Part shown: in pieces, positions 3,997 through 25,651 of the stretch | How the letters are laid out: the number at the start of each line of letters is the position of its first letter | Numbering within the stretch: position 1 is the first letter of the stretch | Origin: Escherichia phage vB-Eco-KMB22 | Sequence record: OR539217.1 | Length of the DNA stretch: 64,000 nucleotides | Direction: 5' to 3' (one strand) | The notes under the pieces: generated by a model | The model's database searches: none | Told to the model about the DNA's origin: nothing | What the model saw: the letters and a program-made list of their open reading frames with translations, nothing else | Made by a program: the position numbers and the translations under genes

Positions 3997-4198
3997 TTTT
4001 CACCTTTTTATTAATATGTCTTTTTCTATAGACAACTTTTTCTCGAGTTTCAAATCTATTCTTAGCAGTCATAGCTCGAGCCCATAATACAGCCACTTCT
4101 TTTGCCTGTAAGTTCAATTCACGAGCAATTTCAATGAATGACTTTCCAGACTCATGAAGCGTAAACACCACAACCTCAGTTCTCATAATCAATCTCAT
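3983..4198 (-). CDS. hypothetical small protein (T4 24.3-position); start codon uncertain
   Basis: 71-aa ORF, no clear SD at first ATG. Confidence 0.45.
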   Translation of the reverse strand: MRLIMRTEVVVFTLHESGKSFIEIARELNLQAKEVAVLWARAMTAKNRFETREKVVYRKRHINKKVKNGTV

Positions 4199-16546: not shown

Positions 16547-16576
16547 ACTATAACACAACACGAGGGACTTGTAAAC
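16547..16576 (-). promoter_or_regulatory. early (sigma70-type) promoter GTTTACA-17-TATAGT
   Basis: -35/-10 spacing and 54-bp near-identity with 32333-32386. Confidence 0.7.
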
Positions 16577-18633
16577 TACATCTTGAACTTTTTAGACATT
16601 CCGTTGATGTTAACCAAAGAAGCCAAGATTTGAGAAACTTCGTTTTCCTCTTCTTTTGATTCTTCTACAAGGAATTGATTAAATCCAGCCATTGGACGAA
16701 CTTCACCAGTTTCCATTAAATGGTCGCCATCATATACTGATTCTTCTAATTGTTCAGAAGGAGGAACGATTGTACCTTCTATTAGATACTTGTTATAAGC
16801 AGTTTCTTTCATAAAGTACGTACTTACTTTATTAATCTTCAGTAAAATTCCACGCGGTAGAATAACTTCAGCTTCTGATGGAAATCCTGATAAATGACCT
16901 GGAACGATAACTTTGATTCGCTCAGCTCCTTTAATTACCATACCCACGCTAGTTTCAGCATCTTCAATGGCATATGTAGAATGACTACCCATATGCATTA
17001 AATCTTCTGCATCAACGGAACCTTCTCCTTCGCCAGAAAATACTGCGCCGGAATCATCTAGAGCCATATAGTTTTTACCATGCTCACCGAAGATATTTGG
17101 TTTAAGTGATGTCGATACGAAGTTCTTGAAATAGAACATTTTGTTTTCAATGTTATGACGCAAAGTTTTAAAGGTAACTTCTTGTCCACGGTAAAGTGTA
17201 GTTCCTGGAGGAAGAACTGATCCTTTGGCAAAGGCAGAATCCAACGTCTCGATGTGCTTAATAGCTCGTTCCATATATTCTTCACGGGTAGAATCTGGTT
17301 TACCCAAAAGGAACGAGTTCATTTCAACATATGAATCTGCACAATAATCTTCAATTACATCAGATTCAGCTTGGGTTAATCCTTTTGGAGTTACTTCGGT
17401 GCTTGCGTATTCATATGCCTGGGCAGCAGATTCATTAATCAATTTATAAATGCCATTCATGACAAATTGAATAATAGCTGTCTTTTCATCTGGCGTAGCT
17501 TTAGAACCTTTAACTAAATCATTAATAATTTTCTTAATAACATCAAAGCTATTAGAAATATTAATGTCAGCAAGATCGCTTAAAATTTTATCAGTTTTAT
17601 AATCAAAGAATTCTTTATTCTTTAAATATTCTTGAGAACCTTGATATGTTATATCGCTCTGCAACTTGATAGATGGATCACGTAAACGTGCATGGGCTAA
17701 TGCAATATGATTTCGGAAGTTTTCTAGTTCATAATCGTTAGATTTAAAACGAGAAGCACTTCTCATACCACCGATAGCTCCTTTGCTAAAGTTTGAACCA
17801 ATCTGGATAACCCCGGAGTTCATCGGACCTTCTGCTTTATATACCGGAACTTTAGATTCAAACTCTTGATATTTCTTGACAGCGAAGCTATCACCCTGGA
17901 GTGAAGCATCAACAGTAGAATATTGAGCTTGTGCTGCTAATCGACGACTAATTTTAGTTTTCTGAATAACAGCTTGATCCGTGCGCTTATCATTTTCTAA
18001 AGCAATAGAAGCAGCAACAGCAACAGCTTTAGGAACAGCATTACCTGTTTTAACGTCTACATAAACATCACCAACCTTTGATTCAACTTTTGTGAATAAC
18101 TCAGTTGAAATAGGAGGTACACCTGGAATGTCTTCTAAATTGGCATTTTTACGGTAAACCATAATATATGCATATTTCTTATCATAGTCCCAGATTTCCT
18201 TTAAGAGAACATATCGACCTGCTCCTTTAGTACGTACTAAACGGTCAGCAATAACTTGCATTTGACGAGCTGCGCCATTTGTTTTACTCTTTAGTACGCG
18301 GAATAGGCATGCGTCGATTTTATACTGTTTCATTGTTTGAAGAGCAGTATCAAAAACAGCATTAATGACGCCAATTGGATTTCCACCCAAGTTTCTAAGC
18401 TTAACCAGCGATAATTTCTCGTTGACACCTATCATTACGATATGCATCATTTTATCGCCCGGCTTAACGTTTTTATTTGTATCACCGCCAGAGGTGTATG
18501 TACAAAATCTAAATCCAGGAAGCACGCTTTCTTCACCGGCTTGAATAGCAAAAATTTGAGGTATTTTATGCTTAGGATTTAAGTTAACAACCGGCGCCGA
18601 AGCGCCGTCAAATAATTCTGTAATAAGTTCCAT
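16576..18633 (-). CDS. Alt-family mono-ADP-ribosyltransferase paralog
   Basis: 685 aa; N-terminal ~235 aa closely parallel the downstream Alt (MELITELFD...); C-terminal region has ART R / STS / EAE motifs (LYRGQ, FVSTSL, EAEVILPRG). Confidence 0.8.
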   Translation of the reverse strand: MELITELFDGASAPVVNLNPKHKIPQIFAIQAGEESVLPGFRFCTYTSGGDTNKNVKPGDKMMHIVMIGVNEKLSLVKLRNLGGNPIGVINAVFDTALQTMKQYKIDACLFRVLKSKTNGAARQMQVIADRLVRTKGAGRYVLLKEIWDYDKKYAYIMVYRKNANLEDIPGVPPISTELFTKVESKVGDVYVDVKTGNAVPKAVAVAASIALENDKRTDQAVIQKTKISRRLAAQAQYSTVDASLQGDSFAVKKYQEFESKVPVYKAEGPMNSGVIQIGSNFSKGAIGGMRSASRFKSNDYELENFRNHIALAHARLRDPSIKLQSDITYQGSQEYLKNKEFFDYKTDKILSDLADINISNSFDVIKKIINDLVKGSKATPDEKTAIIQFVMNGIYKLINESAAQAYEYASTEVTPKGLTQAESDVIEDYCADSYVEMNSFLLGKPDSTREEYMERAIKHIETLDSAFAKGSVLPPGTTLYRGQEVTFKTLRHNIENKMFYFKNFVSTSLKPNIFGEHGKNYMALDDSGAVFSGEGEGSVDAEDLMHMGSHSTYAIEDAETSVGMVIKGAERIKVIVPGHLSGFPSEAEVILPRGILLKINKVSTYFMKETAYNKYLIEGTIVPPSEQLEESVYDGDHLMETGEVRPMAGFNQFLVEESKEEENEVSQILASLVNINGMSKKFKM

Positions 18634-18636
18634 GAT

Positions 18637-20733
18637 TTATCCTTGAACGAACTTGTAAGGCATGTTTGTAATATCTATGCAAGACGCAATAATTCCAAGA
18701 GATGATTCTACTTTCTGTTTAACATTTGATGAAACAAATGATGCAAAGTCAACTCTGTCTTCTATTTCAATATCACCTGTCATTGCAACTACTTCACCGG
18801 TTTCCATTAAATGGTCTCCGTCATAGATTACCGATTCGGTGAGCTCTTCCGTGGTCATAACTTCAGCTTGAATGAGTTTTGTATTATTAGATGTTGTTCC
18901 GTCATTATTAGAAGCATCAGTTATTTTATTAACTTTGACCATCAATCCACGCGGTAGAATAACTTCAGCTTCTGTTGCTATTCCGAGACTTCCTGGATAT
19001 ACAACATTAACTTTATGAGCTCCATCAATTGCCCATCCTATTTGAACTTTAACGTATTCAGGATTTTCTTTATACGCTCTTATTTCGTTTGGATTAATAG
19101 TTATTCCTTCTTCATTTTTATCAACTGTTAATTCATTGCGAGCTTCTGGTTCTAAAAGACCAATACCAGCATGTGTGATTCCAAAACGTCCAAAAATGAT
19201 AGGAGTTAAAGAAGTAGATACAAAATTTCTGAAGTAGAACACTTTATTTTTAACTAACGCTTCATATATAGGAGCAGTCATACTTTGAGCACGATAAACT
19301 GTAATGCCTTCTGGTATACGGTCACCATTTTCAAAAGCTGAATCTAAGTTATTTATAGCAGATTCAATTTCTTTTTCACTCATTACATCATATCGTTCTG
19401 GATTGTAACGACCTAAAAGAAGATTATTGATGTCAGTATATCCTGAACCGCAATATTCTCTAATGCCACGCTTTTGTGATGGAGTATATTTAGAACCATC
19501 GCGGGCAATAGTAATATCAATCATTGGACCAGCACCAATTCCAGAAAAACTGTAAATCATTCGTTTGAGGAATTTAGTTTTTGCTGCGTTCCAGGAATTT
19601 TTAGTCATTTCTTCCCAGACTTCATCTGGCTGCCCTTTACGAGTTTTATTATGTTTATCAAGCCAATTATCTTTATATTCTTCAAAGAGTTGATTAACAG
19701 CTGCTGCGTATTTCTCTAAACATTTTATTGAAGTAGTTGGTTCATTTTTAATCGCATTAAGAATTACATCTTTAATTTTTTCAGAAACTTCATTAACCTC
19801 ACTTTTTGAAAAGAATTTATAGTCATAATGAAGTTCATCTGCGGTTCCTTCGGCAATAATTTTTGCTGCCTTAGTTTTAGAAGCTAATGAATTAATTCCA
19901 AGTTTCATTTCTTCTGCTTCGGGAATTAAAGGAGCGGTAGCAGGTTTATTGAAATTAGCTGCGGTAGATTCATATTTCTGGAATAATTCACTTTCAAATC
20001 TAGAAGATTCCAATGACTGACTTTGTGCAATTGCTCTACGGGAAATTTTAACTTTAACGATTACAGCTTGGTCAGAACGTTTATCATTTTCTTGTGCAAT
20101 AGATGCAGCAATTGCCTCATTTTTAGTTACTTGAGCTCCAGTATCTTTATTGATATAAACATCACCGACCTTCGATTCAACTTTAGTAAAGAGCTCGGTG
20201 CTAATTTCCGGAACTCCTGGAATGTCTTCTAGTGATACATTTTTGCGATGTATAAGAATATATGCATACTTTTTATCGTAATCCCAGAGTTCCTTAAGAA
20301 GGACGTATCTGCCACCTGAACGACTGCGGATAAGTCTATCAGCAATAAGTTGAATTTGACGAGCTTGACCAGCAGTTTTAGACTTAAGAATACGGAGCAT
20401 ACAGGCATCAATTTTATACTGACGCATCGTCTGCATCGCAACAGTAAAAACTGAATTGATGTAATTAATTGGGCTTGGACCGAGACCTTTTAATTTAGCA
20501 ATTGAACCTTTAGCAGTTAATGTAAAAGGAACAATATGCATCATTTTATCGCCCATCTTTAAATCGCGATTAGTATCACCTCCAGATGTATAGGTACATA
20601 AACGAAAGCCTGGTTGTTCAATTGCGTCATCAACACGAACTGAAAAAATTTGCGGTATTTTCTTCTTTGGATTTAAGTTTGTAATCGGAAGAGTAGTATC
20701 TTCGTCAAATAATTCTGTAATAAGTTCCATCAT
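18637..20733 (-). CDS. alt: Alt ADP-ribosyltransferase (head-packaged, injected)
   Basis: 698 aa; MELITE N-terminal propeptide; R-STS-EXE motifs; late promoter TATAAATA upstream at 20754-20761. Confidence 0.85.
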   Translation of the reverse strand: MMELITELFDEDTTLPITNLNPKKKIPQIFSVRVDDAIEQPGFRLCTYTSGGDTNRDLKMGDKMMHIVPFTLTAKGSIAKLKGLGPSPINYINSVFTVAMQTMRQYKIDACMLRILKSKTAGQARQIQLIADRLIRSRSGGRYVLLKELWDYDKKYAYILIHRKNVSLEDIPGVPEISTELFTKVESKVGDVYINKDTGAQVTKNEAIAASIAQENDKRSDQAVIVKVKISRRAIAQSQSLESSRFESELFQKYESTAANFNKPATAPLIPEAEEMKLGINSLASKTKAAKIIAEGTADELHYDYKFFSKSEVNEVSEKIKDVILNAIKNEPTTSIKCLEKYAAAVNQLFEEYKDNWLDKHNKTRKGQPDEVWEEMTKNSWNAAKTKFLKRMIYSFSGIGAGPMIDITIARDGSKYTPSQKRGIREYCGSGYTDINNLLLGRYNPERYDVMSEKEIESAINNLDSAFENGDRIPEGITVYRAQSMTAPIYEALVKNKVFYFRNFVSTSLTPIIFGRFGITHAGIGLLEPEARNELTVDKNEEGITINPNEIRAYKENPEYVKVQIGWAIDGAHKVNVVYPGSLGIATEAEVILPRGLMVKVNKITDASNNDGTTSNNTKLIQAEVMTTEELTESVIYDGDHLMETGEVVAMTGDIEIEDRVDFASFVSSNVKQKVESSLGIIASCIDITNMPYKFVQG

Positions 20734-20787: not shown

Positions 20788-20971
20788 AATCTATTGGTAA
20801 GAGAGTACGATATATTTCAAACTTTGGGCCTTTTTCATAAGCATCAAAAGTTTCTGTGAATTTATTATAAGCATATGCATCTATAAATTCAATCATGATT
20901 TGTGATACAGAAGTAGAAACATCTCCACCTTCTTTTTGAGCCACGACAATTGTTTCTAAGTAAGCTTTCAT
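20783..20971 (-). CDS. hypothetical small protein
   Basis: 62-aa ORF between ligase and alt. Confidence 0.5.
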   Translation of the reverse strand: MKAYLETIVVAQKEGGDVSTSVSQIMIEFIDAYAYNKFTETFDAYEKGPKFEIYRTLLPIDY

Positions 20972-22431
20972 AGACCAGTTACCTCATGAAAATCACCAAA
21001 TACATCCTCGAATGTATTAGCTTTAGTTTTATCTTCACGTAAACGAATCGCAATCGGAAGAAATAATTTAACGTAATCAGTGCGTCCATCAGATTTTAAC
21101 CAACCGTTGCATTCGCACTCTAGAATTTTTCCAATATAATAATTTTGGTTTTCCATGATGCGAGTACGGTCAAGTTCATGCGATTTTACACCGGCTTTAT
21201 CTTTTAAGCCTGAACCAGCATTTACTTTAATTTTTCCACATTCTGATTCAAGAATAAATCCACCCGCTTTAGTAGGGTCTTTACGGTGAGGATAAATTCC
21301 TACAATTTTTAAATCAACATCAATTACTTCTTTAAATTTATAGAGATTTTTTGAACGAGCATTTTCCCATAATCCATCGATATTTTTGAGAATAATACCT
21401 TCAAGACCTTGGTCAATATACTTTTTATAAATTACCTTAGCTTCATCTAGGTTATTTACTACTTGGTTTTCAATTAAAATTACTTTATCATATCCTGATG
21501 TCATTTGTTCTAGTTTAGAAAAACGTACATCATATTTTAAACGAAACGCAGGAAGACCGTATATTTCTACCAACGGGACATAATCCCAGACCTGAAACTT
21601 CATGCATTGAGCTTCTTTTTCAGAAATGGTTCCTTTTAAGGATTTATTGGCGATTCCATTAGAAGTAGTACGAGATTCCGCTACTTCGGCGAATTCTTTA
21701 GCTTTACTAATTTCAGGATAAGCATCAAAAAGAAAATCTAGGCCTTCTGGTTCCTTTTTAACTTGCTCATGGTATACCAATTCGCCATCAATTAACACGC
21801 CTTCTGGATGAATCTGGCGGGCTTCAGCAGTCATTTTGATTAACTCTTCCTTAAGAAGATCTAATCCTAGATATTCATTACCAGCTCGTGATAAAAGACG
21901 AACATCATCTAATTCATCACCTCTAACTTCAGCAAAACACCGAGCTCCATCTGCTTTTAACTGCGCAAAGGCTGGAAACTTGATATTTTTACTAATGCCT
22001 TTTTCATCATAAGAACTTGCCAACATTTGAGGTTGTTCAGGAATTAAACCTGGCCAAACTTTGTTTGCAATAGATACTGAAGCACCGCATTCAAGGTCTC
22101 GCATCATCACTCGACGCAAAACTTCAACATCATCCTTTTTACCATCAGTGATATATCCAGTTAATTCCTCAATTGCCGCATTTCCAGTCAATTTCCGAGT
22201 AGCCAACGTGAATTCAATGAAGTCGAGCATATCTGTAATAGTCAGCATCCCAAAACTCTGGGTAGCAATACCAGGTTTAGGCCATTTCTTGATATAATAC
22301 TGTAACCCACGAGAATAAGTCAGACGATATACTCGTTTAAGCAATTCGTTATCTTTATTCTTTTCAAGAATTGCTTGCTTCTGCTTAGTTGATCCAATAG
22401 ATGCTATTTCATTCAGAATTTTAAGAATCAT
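20968..22431 (-). CDS. 30: ATP-dependent DNA ligase gp30
   Basis: 487 aa; ligase adenylation motifs (KADGAR lysine motif); length as T4 ligase. Confidence 0.95.
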   Translation of the reverse strand: MILKILNEIASIGSTKQKQAILEKNKDNELLKRVYRLTYSRGLQYYIKKWPKPGIATQSFGMLTITDMLDFIEFTLATRKLTGNAAIEELTGYITDGKKDDVEVLRRVMMRDLECGASVSIANKVWPGLIPEQPQMLASSYDEKGISKNIKFPAFAQLKADGARCFAEVRGDELDDVRLLSRAGNEYLGLDLLKEELIKMTAEARQIHPEGVLIDGELVYHEQVKKEPEGLDFLFDAYPEISKAKEFAEVAESRTTSNGIANKSLKGTISEKEAQCMKFQVWDYVPLVEIYGLPAFRLKYDVRFSKLEQMTSGYDKVILIENQVVNNLDEAKVIYKKYIDQGLEGIILKNIDGLWENARSKNLYKFKEVIDVDLKIVGIYPHRKDPTKAGGFILESECGKIKVNAGSGLKDKAGVKSHELDRTRIMENQNYYIGKILECECNGWLKSDGRTDYVKLFLPIAIRLREDKTKANTFEDVFGDFHEVTGL

Positions 22432-22697
22432 TGTTCATCCTTTAGAGTTTGATTTACAGCTCTATTATAAATCAATTCATCATTAAGCTCAGGCAAAGAC
22501 TTATGATATGTAGTTCTAACTTTATTTCCTTGCATCCAGTGCTTGACGTAAATGAAACCTTGCTCTACGCATTTTTTAAAAATTCGTTCGTCTTTTTGAG
22601 CTCGGAATTCTGGATTGCATCTAAAAAATTGATTTACGTGACCGTAATCACGTGTAGTATTACCTTCATTTTCATAAATAGTGTGAACGACAAACAT
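22428..22697 (-). CDS. hypothetical protein (30.1 position)
   Basis: 89-aa ORF, start/stop coupled to neighbours. Confidence 0.6.
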   Translation of the reverse strand: MFVVHTIYENEGNTTRDYGHVNQFFRCNPEFRAQKDERIFKKCVEQGFIYVKHWMQGNKVRTTYHKSLPELNDELIYNRAVNQTLKDEQ

Positions 22698-23560
22698 TAG
22701 AATGCTCCTTGGAAAATATTATCACCACTAGTAAATCTATTAAAATACCCTGCATCACCAGGCTTAGTATAACTCCACGTATGGAATGGATTCATATGAT
22801 ACGGGTGTGTATAATATGGATTATATGGATGTGTATAATATGGATTATACGGATTAAATCCAGGAGTTCTCCAGGTAGTGTTCCAACGAAAAGAATCATT
22901 TTTAATCATCTTTTCAATTACATCTTTTATAGCTTTTTCACTATCAAAACTTTCTTTATTTTCCTTCGGTGAAAAAAGCTTATTTTCTACATCATTCCAT
23001 GTATAAACTCGCTGCGCAGTTTTTGGAATATTGTCACGCTCTCCTCGAGCCATCCAATAAACAGGAACATTTAATATTTCACTCGCATGATCGCAGTGGT
23101 GAGCAAGATCGTCAATATAACAAATTACGTTATATTTCTCTTTTGCCTTTTTGAATAACTCTTCTTTTGAAGAATCATGACCACACATCATTACTTCTGA
23201 GAAGGCACCAGGAAAAAGAGCATTCAAATTAAATTGACGATTCAACAAAGCATCAATAGAATCACCCAATGCTGTAACAGCTACAAAATTATAATCTTCT
23301 TTTAGTTTGTTAATTACACACAGGGCATCTTTATATGGAGACAAATAGCGAATAAAATCTGAACGATTATACTTTTCGATTAATTTAACACCGAGTTCTT
23401 CATCGCAATTAAAGAGCTTACCAGGAGAAATAAATTTTTCGTCCTGAATCATTTTTAAAATATGTTCTAATGGAAGATTATATTTTTGGGCAAAATAAGG
23501 AAGACCTGATTGCCAGCTTAAACATACACCATCAATATCAGTCAAAATAGTAGGCTTCAT
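22697..23560 (-). CDS. HAD-like hydrolase with Pro/Tyr-rich C-terminal repeat (30.2 position)
   Basis: 287 aa; N-terminal DIDGV HAD motif I; C-terminal NPYNPYYTHPY repeats encoded by 24-bp tandem repeat. Confidence 0.65.
   Translation of the reverse strand: MKPTILTDIDGVCLSWQSGLPYFAQKYNLPLEHILKMIQDEKFISPGKLFNCDEELGVKLIEKYNRSDFIRYLSPYKDALCVINKLKEDYNFVAVTALGDSIDALLNRQFNLNALFPGAFSEVMMCGHDSSKEELFKKAKEKYNVICYIDDLAHHCDHASEILNVPVYWMARGERDNIPKTAQRVYTWNDVENKLFSPKENKESFDSEKAIKDVIEKMIKNDSFRWNTTWRTPGFNPYNPYYTHPYNPYYTHPYHMNPFHTWSYTKPGDAGYFNRFTSGDNIFQGAF
22805..22852. repeat. 24-bp in-frame tandem repeat (2 units, 22/24 identical) in HAD-like gene
   Basis: encodes repeated NPYYTHPY on - strand. Confidence 0.85.
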
Positions 23561-24021
23561 AGAGAGTCTCTTAGTAGGTTTAACACATCAATAAATTCAG
23601 CTTCGGTTAGTATTGTATCATCTTTTGTTAGACCACTAGCCATGCTGTGCTTCAAAACTTTTCCTTTTGAGGCTTGTAAGGCATCACGAAACCCCTTGTT
23701 TTGAATCGCTGCTTCAAAATATGCATTTGTATACAACTCTTTCCACGCTGGAGAGTATCTTGAAAATGGAACTCCCAGCCAGAAGAGGGTCCCACGGTCC
23801 TGAGCTCTTGCATAAGACCTTCCAGCTTGTTGGGCGGCAACCCCGGATAACCCAAATATACGTCTTTGCTGCTCAACATTTTTCACCTTGCATCCTTGGA
23901 GGAATCCTTCGAGACCTCCAAATTGAATACCATCCATGACGAAAGGCCATTGGGCGAAATTACTTAATGCACATGATGGCCACCTAAAATTGCTTCTAAT
24001 CTCTAACTCAGACATTTTCAA
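23557..24021 (-). CDS. NADAR (YbiA-like) domain protein (30.3 position)
   Basis: 154 aa; SNFAQWPFVMDG...Q..K segment resembles the YbiA/NADAR core motif (recalled). Confidence 0.55.
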   Translation of the reverse strand: MKMSELEIRSNFRWPSCALSNFAQWPFVMDGIQFGGLEGFLQGCKVKNVEQQRRIFGLSGVAAQQAGRSYARAQDRGTLFWLGVPFSRYSPAWKELYTNAYFEAAIQNKGFRDALQASKGKVLKHSMASGLTKDDTILTEAEFIDVLNLLRDSL

Positions 24022-24214
24022 TGCTTATAATTTCAACATCAGCCCAATGACCATAGCAAGGAAGACGAAATTCAACTGGCCAGTTAGGGTCCTTTTCTAA
24101 TATAATAGACTTAACTTGTGGTTCTTCATGTTCATCTGTATACGGATTTTTATCTGTTACTTTATATGTGACCTTAATGTACTGAATTCCAAAAATCTTA
24201 TTAATTATATTCAT
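24008..24214 (-). CDS. hypothetical protein
   Basis: 68-aa ORF. Confidence 0.5.
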   Translation of the reverse strand: MNIINKIFGIQYIKVTYKVTDKNPYTDEHEEPQVKSIILEKDPNWPVEFRLPCYGHWADVEIISIENV

Positions 24215-25598: not shown

Positions 25599-25651
25599 AA
25601 CTTTGTGCAATCTTTGGAAAATAAAAAAGGACTCCCGAAGGAGTCCTTAAC

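Follow-up and report, generated by a model that had tools for sequence, protein, structure and literature searches.

An adfN gene for a phage-type NADAR beside a HAD phosphatase-type gene of probably separate function in Escherichia phage vB-Eco-KMB22

Two adjacent early genes of Escherichia phage vB-Eco-KMB22, a T4-like coliphage, are very probably separate in function. Judged by its sequence, the smaller gene is adfN, which encodes AdfN, a phage-type NADAR and an already known anti-DarTG1 factor; the larger, the orthologue of T4 30.2, is predicted to encode a HAD phosphomonoesterase that stands outside the anti-DarT mechanism. Our analysis used a window of 64,000 nt from this phage (OR539217.1), in which the original prediction had placed an ORF of 154 aa next to one of 287 aa, with the DNA ligase gene and genes for Alt-type ADP-ribosyltransferases (ARTs) nearby. 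Both ORFs are real: they lie on the minus strand at the predicted positions, and neither is a chance ORF. The first, a mechanical call at 23557..24021, carries ALSNFAQWPFVMDGIQFGGLEGFLQGCK, and the second, at 22697..23560, has the N-terminus MKPTILTDIDGV and the C-terminus NPYNPYYTHPYNPYYTHPYHMNPFHTW. We place the true start of adfN at the ATG at 24015 rather than at the TTG at 24021, giving a protein of 152 aa rather than 154, because this start agrees with the T4 annotation, gives an end-to-end alignment with gp30.3, and reproduces the published numbering of E36 and K43. The features of the locus are:

24008..24214, minus strand: T4 30.4 orthologue, 68 aa, from direct reading of the sequence (phrog_2042, E=2e-35)
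23557..24015, minus strand: adfN (T4 30.3 orthologue), 152 aa plus stop, predicted phage-type NADAR DNA ADP-ribosylglycohydrolase
22697..23560, minus strand: T4 30.2 orthologue, 287 aa plus stop, predicted HAD-superfamily phosphatase-type enzyme
22976..23560, minus strand: HAD part of gp30.2, residues 1-195, made up of a Rossmann-like core and a four-helix C1 cap
22700..22975, minus strand: C-terminal tail of gp30.2, residues 196-287, variable among homologues, with mostly low pLDDT and in-frame indels relative to T4
22799..22854, minus strand: 24-bp tandem repeat, 2.3 copies, encoding NPYYTHPY (TRF score 98, 90% matches)

The gene order, 30.4-30.3-30.2-30.1-30, is identical in T4. The start of 30.2 overlaps the stop of adfN through ATGA, and the 3' end of 30.4 overlaps the start of adfN by 8 nt (ATGTCTGA). 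DNA ligase and two tandem Alt paralogues, which are 41% identical to each other, are encoded just downstream of 30.2, as had been proposed; the Alt-type ARTs, named according to the annotation of the T4 record, lie ~3 kb from adfN, past the ligase. A scan for promoters and terminators between 20.7 and 26.4 kb returned no more candidates than chance would give, with the exception of a single terminator-like hairpin near 25.63 kb, and Rfam and tRNA scans between 20 and 27 kb gave no matches. We rejected the idea that the internal ORF 30.3' is an overlapping gene under conservation, because several relatives have lost its start codon or have an interrupted frame.

The adfN product matches T4 gp30.3 at 150 of 152 positions, in an ungapped alignment of proteins of equal length; the only differences, L59V and I125M, are both conservative, and the neighbours, overlaps, catalytic residues and C-terminal helix are all like those of T4 AdfN (Johannesman et al., Nat Commun 2025, PMC11825919). 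The 30.3 protein was found in 1,510 phage records by tblastn. In Pfam searches, PF08010 (Phage_30_3) matches the adfN product over profile positions 1-138 of 138, with E=4e-70 and a score of 234 bits where the cut-off is 36. For the HAD-like protein of the window, Pfam gave no match, and neither did NCBIfam or PADLOC. PF08719 (NADAR) returned nothing at E<=1 for AdfN of the window; 22 of the 59 Phage_30_3 members do match it (best E=1.5e-7), and since PF08010 is a separate Pfam family, we take these matches as a bridge between the two families rather than as a requirement. Searches of NCBIfam and PADLOC with the NADAR protein gave no matches, and a single-sequence search of PDB sequences gave chance matches only.

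Structure prediction gave a clear answer. The AF2 model of AdfN (pLDDT 93, pTM 0.88) has as its top three Foldseek matches in the PDB E. coli YbiA (2b3w; TM 0.67, E=2e-4), a Phytophthora NADAR with ADP-ribose (8bau) and a Geobacter NADAR (8bat), all with a probability of 0.99-1.00; the remaining matches have a probability of at most 0.06, so that YbiA and NADARs are the only meaningful fold matches. The predicted resemblance to the YbiA/NADAR family is thus upheld by the clear fold match, with PF08719 matches in other members of the family. Among 59 homologues, E36 and H123 are invariant and K43 is at least 90% conserved; E36 and K43 are the catalytic Glu and Lys with which NADARs contact ADP-ribose, and H123, the phage-type His, occupies the third catalytic position on the last strand. 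The C-terminal helix is intact, the protein having its full 152 aa and a helix at 138-151 in the model.

T4 AdfN ("anti-DarT factor NADAR") is a guanine-specific DNA ADP-ribosylglycohydrolase that is both necessary and sufficient against DarTG1 (PMC11825919, PMC11125620), and given the identity of the window protein to it, the proposed anti-DarT counter-defence role of the small ORF is correct but already known. T4 and T2 without adfN form no plaques on a DarTG1 host, RB69 is rescued fully by plasmid-borne adfN alone, and ADP-ribose is taken off DarT1-modified DNA by purified T4 AdfN; E36A and K43A weaken the T4 protein, and the absence of the last 15 residues lowers the activity of RB69 AdfN (PMC11825919). 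In vitro, G-ADPr is cleaved and T-ADPr is not (PMC11125620; PMC12945103). In published T4 Tn-seq data from a DarTG1 host, 30.3 has a log2 fold change of -7.25. T4 AdfN does not rescue uninfected cells from DarT1 toxicity and has full function only in T-even infection (PMC11825919, PMC11125620), which implies that the mechanism as described still lacks a cofactor or some feature of the substrate; a T-even-specific factor is reportedly required (PMC11825919).

We infer the activity, guanine specificity and phenotype of the vB-Eco-KMB22 allele from the 99%-identical T4 protein. Host DarT1 would ADP-ribosylate guanine in replicating phage DNA, and AdfN would hydrolyse the base-ribose bond, releasing ADP-ribose and restoring a replicable template; with its template restored, the phage would escape DarTG1. 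Catalysis would involve E36, K43 and the phage-specific H123, and would require the C-terminal helix. DarG1, the NADAR antitoxin of DarTG1 (e.g. that of Geobacter lovleyi, 8bat), has both the fold and the guanine-DNA de-ADP-ribosylation in common with AdfN. Unlike DarG1, AdfN lacks the N-terminal extension, has His in place of Asp, and fails to neutralise DarT1 in uninfected cells. There is also no DarT1 toxin gene beside adfN, where the flanking 30.4 and 30.2 genes do not encode ARTs and PADLOC finds no match; we therefore regard this NADAR gene as an orphan antitoxin-like gene and not as part of a toxin-antitoxin system.

The product of the larger gene is 91% identical to T4 gp30.2 (phrog_420, E=3e-89), and the 30.2 protein was found in 1,439 phage records by tblastn. 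The HAD motif I (DIDGV) noticed in the original prediction proved to be one of four conserved HAD motifs. Its residues D8 and D10 (TDIDGV) show no variation across 60 homologues or across 93 distant ones; among the 60 homologues, K132 of motif III is likewise invariant, and T96 of motif II and D150/D151 of motif IV are at least 90% conserved. The model is a confident HAD fold, with a Rossmann-like core and a four-helix C1 cap, in which T96, K132 and D150/D151 sit at the ends of successive core strands. No Pfam HAD family matches gp30.2 or its close relatives above threshold. The NT5C profile (PF06941) matches 9 of the 60 close homologues at E<=0.1 (best E=1.2e-4) and 40 of the 93 distant relatives (best E=4e-10), and at least one distant relative (P0340) passes the gathering cut-off, with 25.5 bits against 24.8. 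Since the window protein itself falls below that gathering score and distant relatives match, we call gp30.2 allied to NT5C, not a member of it.

The comparison with NT5C-type 5'(3')-deoxyribonucleotidases (cdN/mdN: 2jao, 2i7d, 1mh9; and the putative enzyme 3bwv) points the same way. These enzymes have the HAD core, the C1 cap and the DxD in common with gp30.2, as well as an extended motif I in which an aromatic residue at D+8 is followed by SGL. They are the best compact structural matches of gp30.2, and no other sequence-profile match in the PDB extends over most of the domain, although identity is just 16-21% and gp30.2 has an extra disordered tail of ~90 aa. A profile built from the distant relatives matches 3bwv over its full length (E=5.7e-6); a single-sequence search of PDB sequences with gp30.2 gave chance matches only. 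The extended motif I of gp30.2, DxDGVxxxWxSGL, aligns with DMDGVLADFESGL of cdN, such that the invariant W16 (D+8) falls on the Phe of that cdN segment, and SGL is common to both. In cdN and mdN structures, this Phe stacks on the base; an aromatic residue at D+8 is the nucleotide-binding signature that follows motif I in the NT5C family. We propose that gp30.2 would be a Mg-dependent HAD phosphomonoesterase, with the DxD as nucleophile/acid pair and a C1 cap, and that its substrate is most likely a small phosphorylated metabolite, e.g. a (deoxy)nucleoside monophosphate. A literature search on gp30.2 found nothing relevant. In published T4 Tn-seq, from which we took the 30.2 rows of the HIDEN-SEQ tables for the library comparison, DarTG1, and LB versus M9, 30.2 is non-essential on K-12 and shows no phenotype on DarTG1 or in LB versus M9. 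A null result for 30.2 in single-condition Tn-seq is compatible with a redundant or minor contribution.

The tail of gp30.2 is Pro/Tyr/Asn-rich and mostly modelled at low confidence, with one confident helix at 202-220 and pLDDT below 50 from residue 242. The Pro/Tyr-rich repeat that had been described at the end of the ORF corresponds to the 24-bp tandem repeat listed above; the NPYYTHPY that it encodes explains most of the difference in length between this protein (287 aa) and T4 gp30.2 (278 aa), relative to which the tail has in-frame indels. Homologues span 196-347 aa, with the tail absent or different in many of them. We considered a clamp- or SSB-type motif at the C-terminal tip and rejected it, the tails being too variable. 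A loose G(T)GIEYLxRQPT motif recurs at the tail in some lineages and is present in a diverged form in vB-Eco-KMB22. The extra parts of longer gp30.2 relatives contain no Pfam domains and so offer no functional clue.

Each of the two proteins could be read differently. YbiA tops the structural matches of AdfN, the two have an alpha-helical core in common, and some sources name relatives "YbiA (DUF1768 family)"; the small protein might then be a housekeeping N-glycosidase acting on riboflavin-pathway intermediates rather than in DNA repair or counter-defence. YbiA itself has reported housekeeping roles, in riboflavin intermediates and swarming, and gives no protection from DarT1 in vivo (PMC11125620). 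We find this reading scarcely credible, since identity to YbiA is 19%, since the third catalytic position is Glu in YbiA, Asp in DarG1 and His in phage NADARs (PMC11125620, PMC12945103), and since published T4 data contradict it: experiments have shown that the T4 protein removes ADP-ribose from DNA, and its phenotype is specific to DarTG1. For gp30.2, the location of its gene within ~2 kb upstream of the ligase gene in 76 of 80 related loci could instead indicate a DNA-end 3'-phosphatase, similar to the HAD domain of polynucleotide kinase/phosphatase, that prepares nicks for the ligase encoded downstream. A weak PHROG match to polynucleotide kinase (E=1.2e-3) and a weak match to Pfam HAD_PNKP in 1 of the 93 distant relatives are consistent with this idea, and the phosphatase domain of PseT, the T4 polynucleotide kinase, has a HAD-type DxD, comes from the same kind of phage and shows weak profile similarity to gp30.2 in motifs II-IV. 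The PseT phosphatase has no cap and acts on DNA and RNA 3' ends. gp30.2, by contrast, lacks a kinase domain and has a four-helix C1 cap that covers the active site in the model; in HAD enzymes, such a cap is associated with substrates that are small molecules, not macromolecules. NT5C is, moreover, by far the commonest Pfam match (40 of 93, against 1 of 93 for HAD_PNKP), T4 already has PseT, and the ligase is essential whereas 30.2 is not. A role for gp30.2 at DNA ends is thus improbable, and we favour a phosphomonoesterase acting on small metabolites. As a nucleotidase, gp30.2 may serve a counter-defence or nucleotide-pool function, an option that we hold to be weaker than the possibility, considered below, of gp30.4 being a partner of AdfN.

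The original prediction went further and combined NADAR, HAD protein and the Alt-type ARTs nearby into one ADP-ribose/NAD-handling counter-defence module; in such a module, gp30.2 might act on the ADP-ribose that AdfN releases, or might itself be the T-even factor that T4 AdfN reportedly needs. adfN and 30.2 overlap (ATGA) and are co-transcribed, the NADAR-HAD-ligase order recurs in distant T4-like phages whose NADARs are ~42% identical, and nearly all T4-like phages carry both 30.2 and the NADAR, with comparable counts for each host genus. The published DarTG1 Tn-seq nonetheless hits 30.3 (-7.25) and spares 30.2 (log2 fold change -0.12, p=0.61), 30.1 (-0.01) and alt (-0.01). Linkage is also loose: a NADAR gene lies within 4 kb upstream of 30.2 in ~38 of 80 related loci, so that about half lack one there, whereas the ligase adjoins 30.2 in 76 of 80; in Aeromonas phage 60AhydR15PP, a contig and a record of matching length (165,795 bp) suggest that 30.2 and the NADAR gene are ~100 kb apart, if the two sequences are identical and their coordinates share one frame; and none of the non-T4-like phage contigs examined has a 30.2-like gene beside its Phage_30_3 NADAR. 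We consider a joint module highly improbable, and for DarTG1 it is largely refuted. On the T4 Tn-seq data and the lack of conserved linkage we rejected gp30.2 as an AdfN potentiator or as a member of an ADP-ribose module; we also rejected Alt as a member, because alt is unaffected on DarTG1 and because the literature gives Alt a different role, against Mokosh type I. The NARP3 paper on NAD-reconstitution pathways contains no link to a HAD protein or to 30.2. We favour adjacent but functionally separate genes, with 30.2 staying beside adfN because both belong to the conserved 30.x run upstream of the DNA ligase gene.

The upstream neighbour, 30.4, is the one gene besides 30.3 to reach significance in the T4 screen on DarTG1 (log2 fold change -1.79, padj 0.014), and gp30.4 could be a genuine partner protein for AdfN, perhaps the T-even-specific potentiator, beyond being a mere translational coupler. 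Consistent with a partnership, 30.4 is unaffected in the LB versus M9 Tn-seq and is confined to Tevenvirinae loci, in all of which adfN follows it directly; for the gene upstream of rIIA, the same data set gives no sign of such a polar effect. Against this, 30.4 is probably translationally coupled to adfN, because the last 30.4 codons contain the adfN ATG (ATGTCTGA, with the 8-nt overlap), and the preceding 20 nt contain no Shine-Dalgarno-like run; insertions in 30.4 would thus be expected to reduce translation of adfN, and the partial effect of 30.4 fits such a reduction. In addition, adfN supplied on a plasmid is by itself enough for full rescue of RB69, although that phage already has a 30.4 gene of its own. 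We conclude that the 30.4 signal on DarTG1 is likely due to translational coupling and that a protein partnership, though it retains some small probability, is unlikely. NCBIfam and PADLOC gave no matches for gp30.4. The depletion of 30.4 on DarTG1 is not discussed in the preprint that published the screen.

NADARs fall into four recognised families, of which the phage NADARs are one, and the anti-DarTG1 role of T4 gp30.3/AdfN is established. The 30.4 signal points to one candidate for the cofactor that would let T4 AdfN work only in T-even infection. gp30.2, by its conserved motifs a clear phosphatase-type enzyme, is the product of a near-core gene of T4-like phages that stays beside DNA ligase. 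For annotation, the smaller gene can be named adfN, and resistance to DarTG1 is predictable for phage vB-Eco-KMB22.

The window comes from a T4-like coliphage; the 1.85-kb stretch around the two predicted ORFs shares 96% DNA identity with Shigella phages ESh18 and Shfl2 and with many Tequatrovirus records. From ~18.6 to 27 kb every gene is on the minus strand, with tight packing. We took the gene order from the ORF list and the T4 reference annotation; it runs as follows, from upstream to downstream:

upstream of 30.4, minus strand: 30.7, 30.6 and 30.5
24008..24214, minus strand: 30.4 orthologue (gp30.4), 68 aa, phrog_2042
23557..24015, minus strand: 30.3 orthologue (adfN), from T4 annotation and alignment
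22697..23560, minus strand: 30.2 orthologue, from T4 annotation
22428..22697, minus strand: 30.1, from ORF list and T4 annotation
20968..22431, minus strand: DNA ligase gene 30, from ORF list and T4 annotation
between gene 30 and the Alt paralogues, minus strand: alt.1
18637..20733 and 16576..18633, minus strand: tandem pair of intact Alt paralogues (698 and 685 aa), Alt-type ADP-ribosyltransferases

The coordinates of the original prediction, 22697-24021, correspond exactly to the span of the 30.3 and 30.2 orthologues, and the motifs quoted in it are found there. The two Alt paralogues are 41% identical to one another; in T4, by contrast, the second alt copy is decayed, leaving alt.-1 and alt.-2. 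A scan for promoters and terminators gave chance-level results apart from one strong terminator-like hairpin (9-bp stem with 5 GC pairs, T-run; 25627..25648, minus strand), upstream of the 30.8-30.x gene run.

The small protein of this phage is AdfN. Its start codon is the ATG at 24015, giving 152 aa, in agreement with the T4 gene and the published residue numbering; the TTG at 24021 is only a mechanical ORF start. The protein is identical to T4 gp30.3 at 150 of 152 positions, L59V and I125M being the sole differences, and it matches Pfam PF08010 (Phage_30_3; E=4e-70). The Pfam NADAR profile, PF08719, does not match the protein directly, but it does match 22 of 59 aligned Phage_30_3 family members (best E=1.5e-7). 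An AlphaFold model built with 59 homologues in the alignment (pLDDT 93, pTM 0.88) has three meaningful PDB matches, namely E. coli YbiA (2b3w), a Phytophthora NADAR with ADP-ribose (8bau) and a Geobacter lovleyi NADAR (8bat); the remaining matches have probabilities of at most 0.06. E36 and H123 are invariant in the family, and K43 is nearly so (at least 90%). The modelled protein has the C-terminal helix that is missing from the inactive RB69 allele. A 75-aa ORF in the +1 frame within adfN (30.3'; 23652..23879, minus strand), which the T4 annotation lists as a product of internal translation, is likewise open in this phage. Among related phage contigs, its ATG is replaced in some (L005-L008, L011, L012, L014, L015) and the frame is broken by a stop in another (L010); judged from these sequences, 30.3' is probably not a conserved gene.

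Phage gp30.3 proteins were assigned to the NADAR superfamily by Schuller et al. (2023), as described in papers citing that work, and phage NADARs are one of four NADAR families (PMC12945103). T4 gp30.3 removes ADP-ribose from guanine, not thymine, in DNA in vitro (PMC11125620). T4 and T2 lacking the gene, since renamed adfN, form no plaques on DarTG1 hosts, RB69 is rescued by ectopic AdfN, purified AdfN de-ADP-ribosylates DarT1-modified DNA, and E36A, K43A and C-terminal truncation weaken the protein (PMC11825919). A T4 transposon screen reported in a preprint found adfN insertions to be lost on DarTG1 (log2FC -7.25). Given the near-identity of the two proteins and this published T4 work, the motif-based reading of the small ORF as an anti-DarT NADAR was right; this central element is, however, already known.

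The proposal that the NADAR, HAD and Alt genes form one module was not supported. In the HIDEN-SEQ resampling table for DarTG1, the source of the per-gene log2FC values, only 30.3 and 30.4 (-1.79, padj 0.014) are significant in T4, with no effect for 30.2 (-0.12, p=0.61), 30.1 (-0.01) or alt (-0.01). On K-12, T4 30.2 is dispensable, and it is neutral in LB versus M9; for Alt, a separate counter-defence role against Mokosh type I has been reported. Among 80 viral contigs with a 30.2 homologue (L002-L081; T4-like phages of many host genera, 30.2 at about position 4001), DNA ligase lies just downstream of 30.2 in 76, and the intervening and flanking genes, 30.1 and 30.3-30.7, are variably present. 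Only ~38 of the 80 have a solid NADAR match (E<=1e-36) in the 4 kb upstream of 30.2, by both tblastn and family HMM. An apparent ~100-kb separation of the two genes in Aeromonas phage 60AhydR15PP, if both coordinate frames are the same, suggests that the NADAR gene can sit elsewhere, and the examined non-T4-like phage contigs with a Phage_30_3 NADAR have no 30.2-like gene nearby. We therefore rejected even a module of 30.3 and 30.2 alone, on the HIDEN-SEQ nulls, the partial linkage and these other phages. Phage records with 30.3 and 30.2 number 1,510 and 1,439, with matching counts per host genus; both simply belong to the near-core gene set of T4-like phages. Separately, Phage_30_3-type NADARs ~38% identical to this AdfN are encoded in large phage-like contigs (up to 308 kb) unrelated to this phage (5001-5468 in both L082 and L085); their neighbours differ, L082 having Nudix and Thg1-like genes nearby and L085 a GGDEF gene, and the L085 protein matches both PF08010 and PF08719.

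The HAD assignment of the larger ORF was borne out by four motifs and a modelled HAD core. The protein is 91% identical to T4 gp30.2 and itself has no match in Pfam, NCBIfam or PADLOC. Among 60 homologues all four motifs show complete or near-complete conservation (D8 and D10, T96, K132, D150 and D151), and the model is very confident at residues 1-195, with a Rossmann-like core and a four-helix C1 cap. In the HAD superfamily, a DxD motif indicates a phosphatase rather than a dehalogenase. The family profile, run in a full HMMER search, gave 1,295 cluster representatives, mostly of ~200 aa, the core without the tail. Pfam NT5C, the 5'(3')-deoxyribonucleotidase family, matches 40 of 93 distant relatives (best E=4e-10); a profile built from these relatives can be aligned along its entire length with the putative 5'(3')-deoxyribonucleotidase 3bwv (E=5.7e-6); the extended motif I, DxDGVxxxWxSGL, aligns with DMDGVLADFESGL of the family member cdN; and the most compact structural matches are deoxyribonucleotidases too (target-normalised TM 0.63-0.70). 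We therefore call gp30.2 an NT5C-allied HAD phosphatase, with a (deoxy)nucleotide as its most probable, putative substrate. The tail is absent altogether from many family members. In the model it is partly confident (helix 202-220), with pLDDT <50 from residue 242, and its 24-bp tandem repeat (NPYYTHPY; 22799-22854) is the main source of the extra length relative to T4 gp30.2. Repeat copy number and in-frame indels vary in the tail region (22700..22975, minus strand) among close relatives. Many homologues from other genera carry a loose tail motif, G(T)GIEYLxRQPT, diverged to GDAGYFNRFT in this phage, and in one homologue cluster, P0015, a DUF3045 (30.1) domain is apparently fused to the HAD core.

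In uninfected cells T4 AdfN fails to relieve DarT1 toxicity, and it is fully functional only in T-even infection (PMC11825919, Johannesman et al.), implying an additional phage factor or substrate feature. One candidate is gp30.4, as a true partner of AdfN. Besides adfN, 30.4 is the only DarTG1-specific gene in the T4 transposon data, a signal absent from the preprint's main text. The 30.4 gene shows no change in LB versus M9 and occurs in Tevenvirinae loci only, in every case as the immediate upstream neighbour of adfN, and the gene upstream of rIIA shows no generic polar effect in the same data set. Nonetheless, we consider such a partnership unlikely; translational coupling to adfN is the simpler explanation. 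The adfN ATG lies inside the last codons of 30.4 (ATGTCTGA; 8-nt overlap), and no Shine-Dalgarno-like run is present in the 20 nt before it, such that insertions in 30.4 would reduce AdfN synthesis and produce a partial DarTG1 phenotype. Only two parts of this locus could still give something new: the 30.4 signal, and the widely conserved gp30.2, its substrate in particular.
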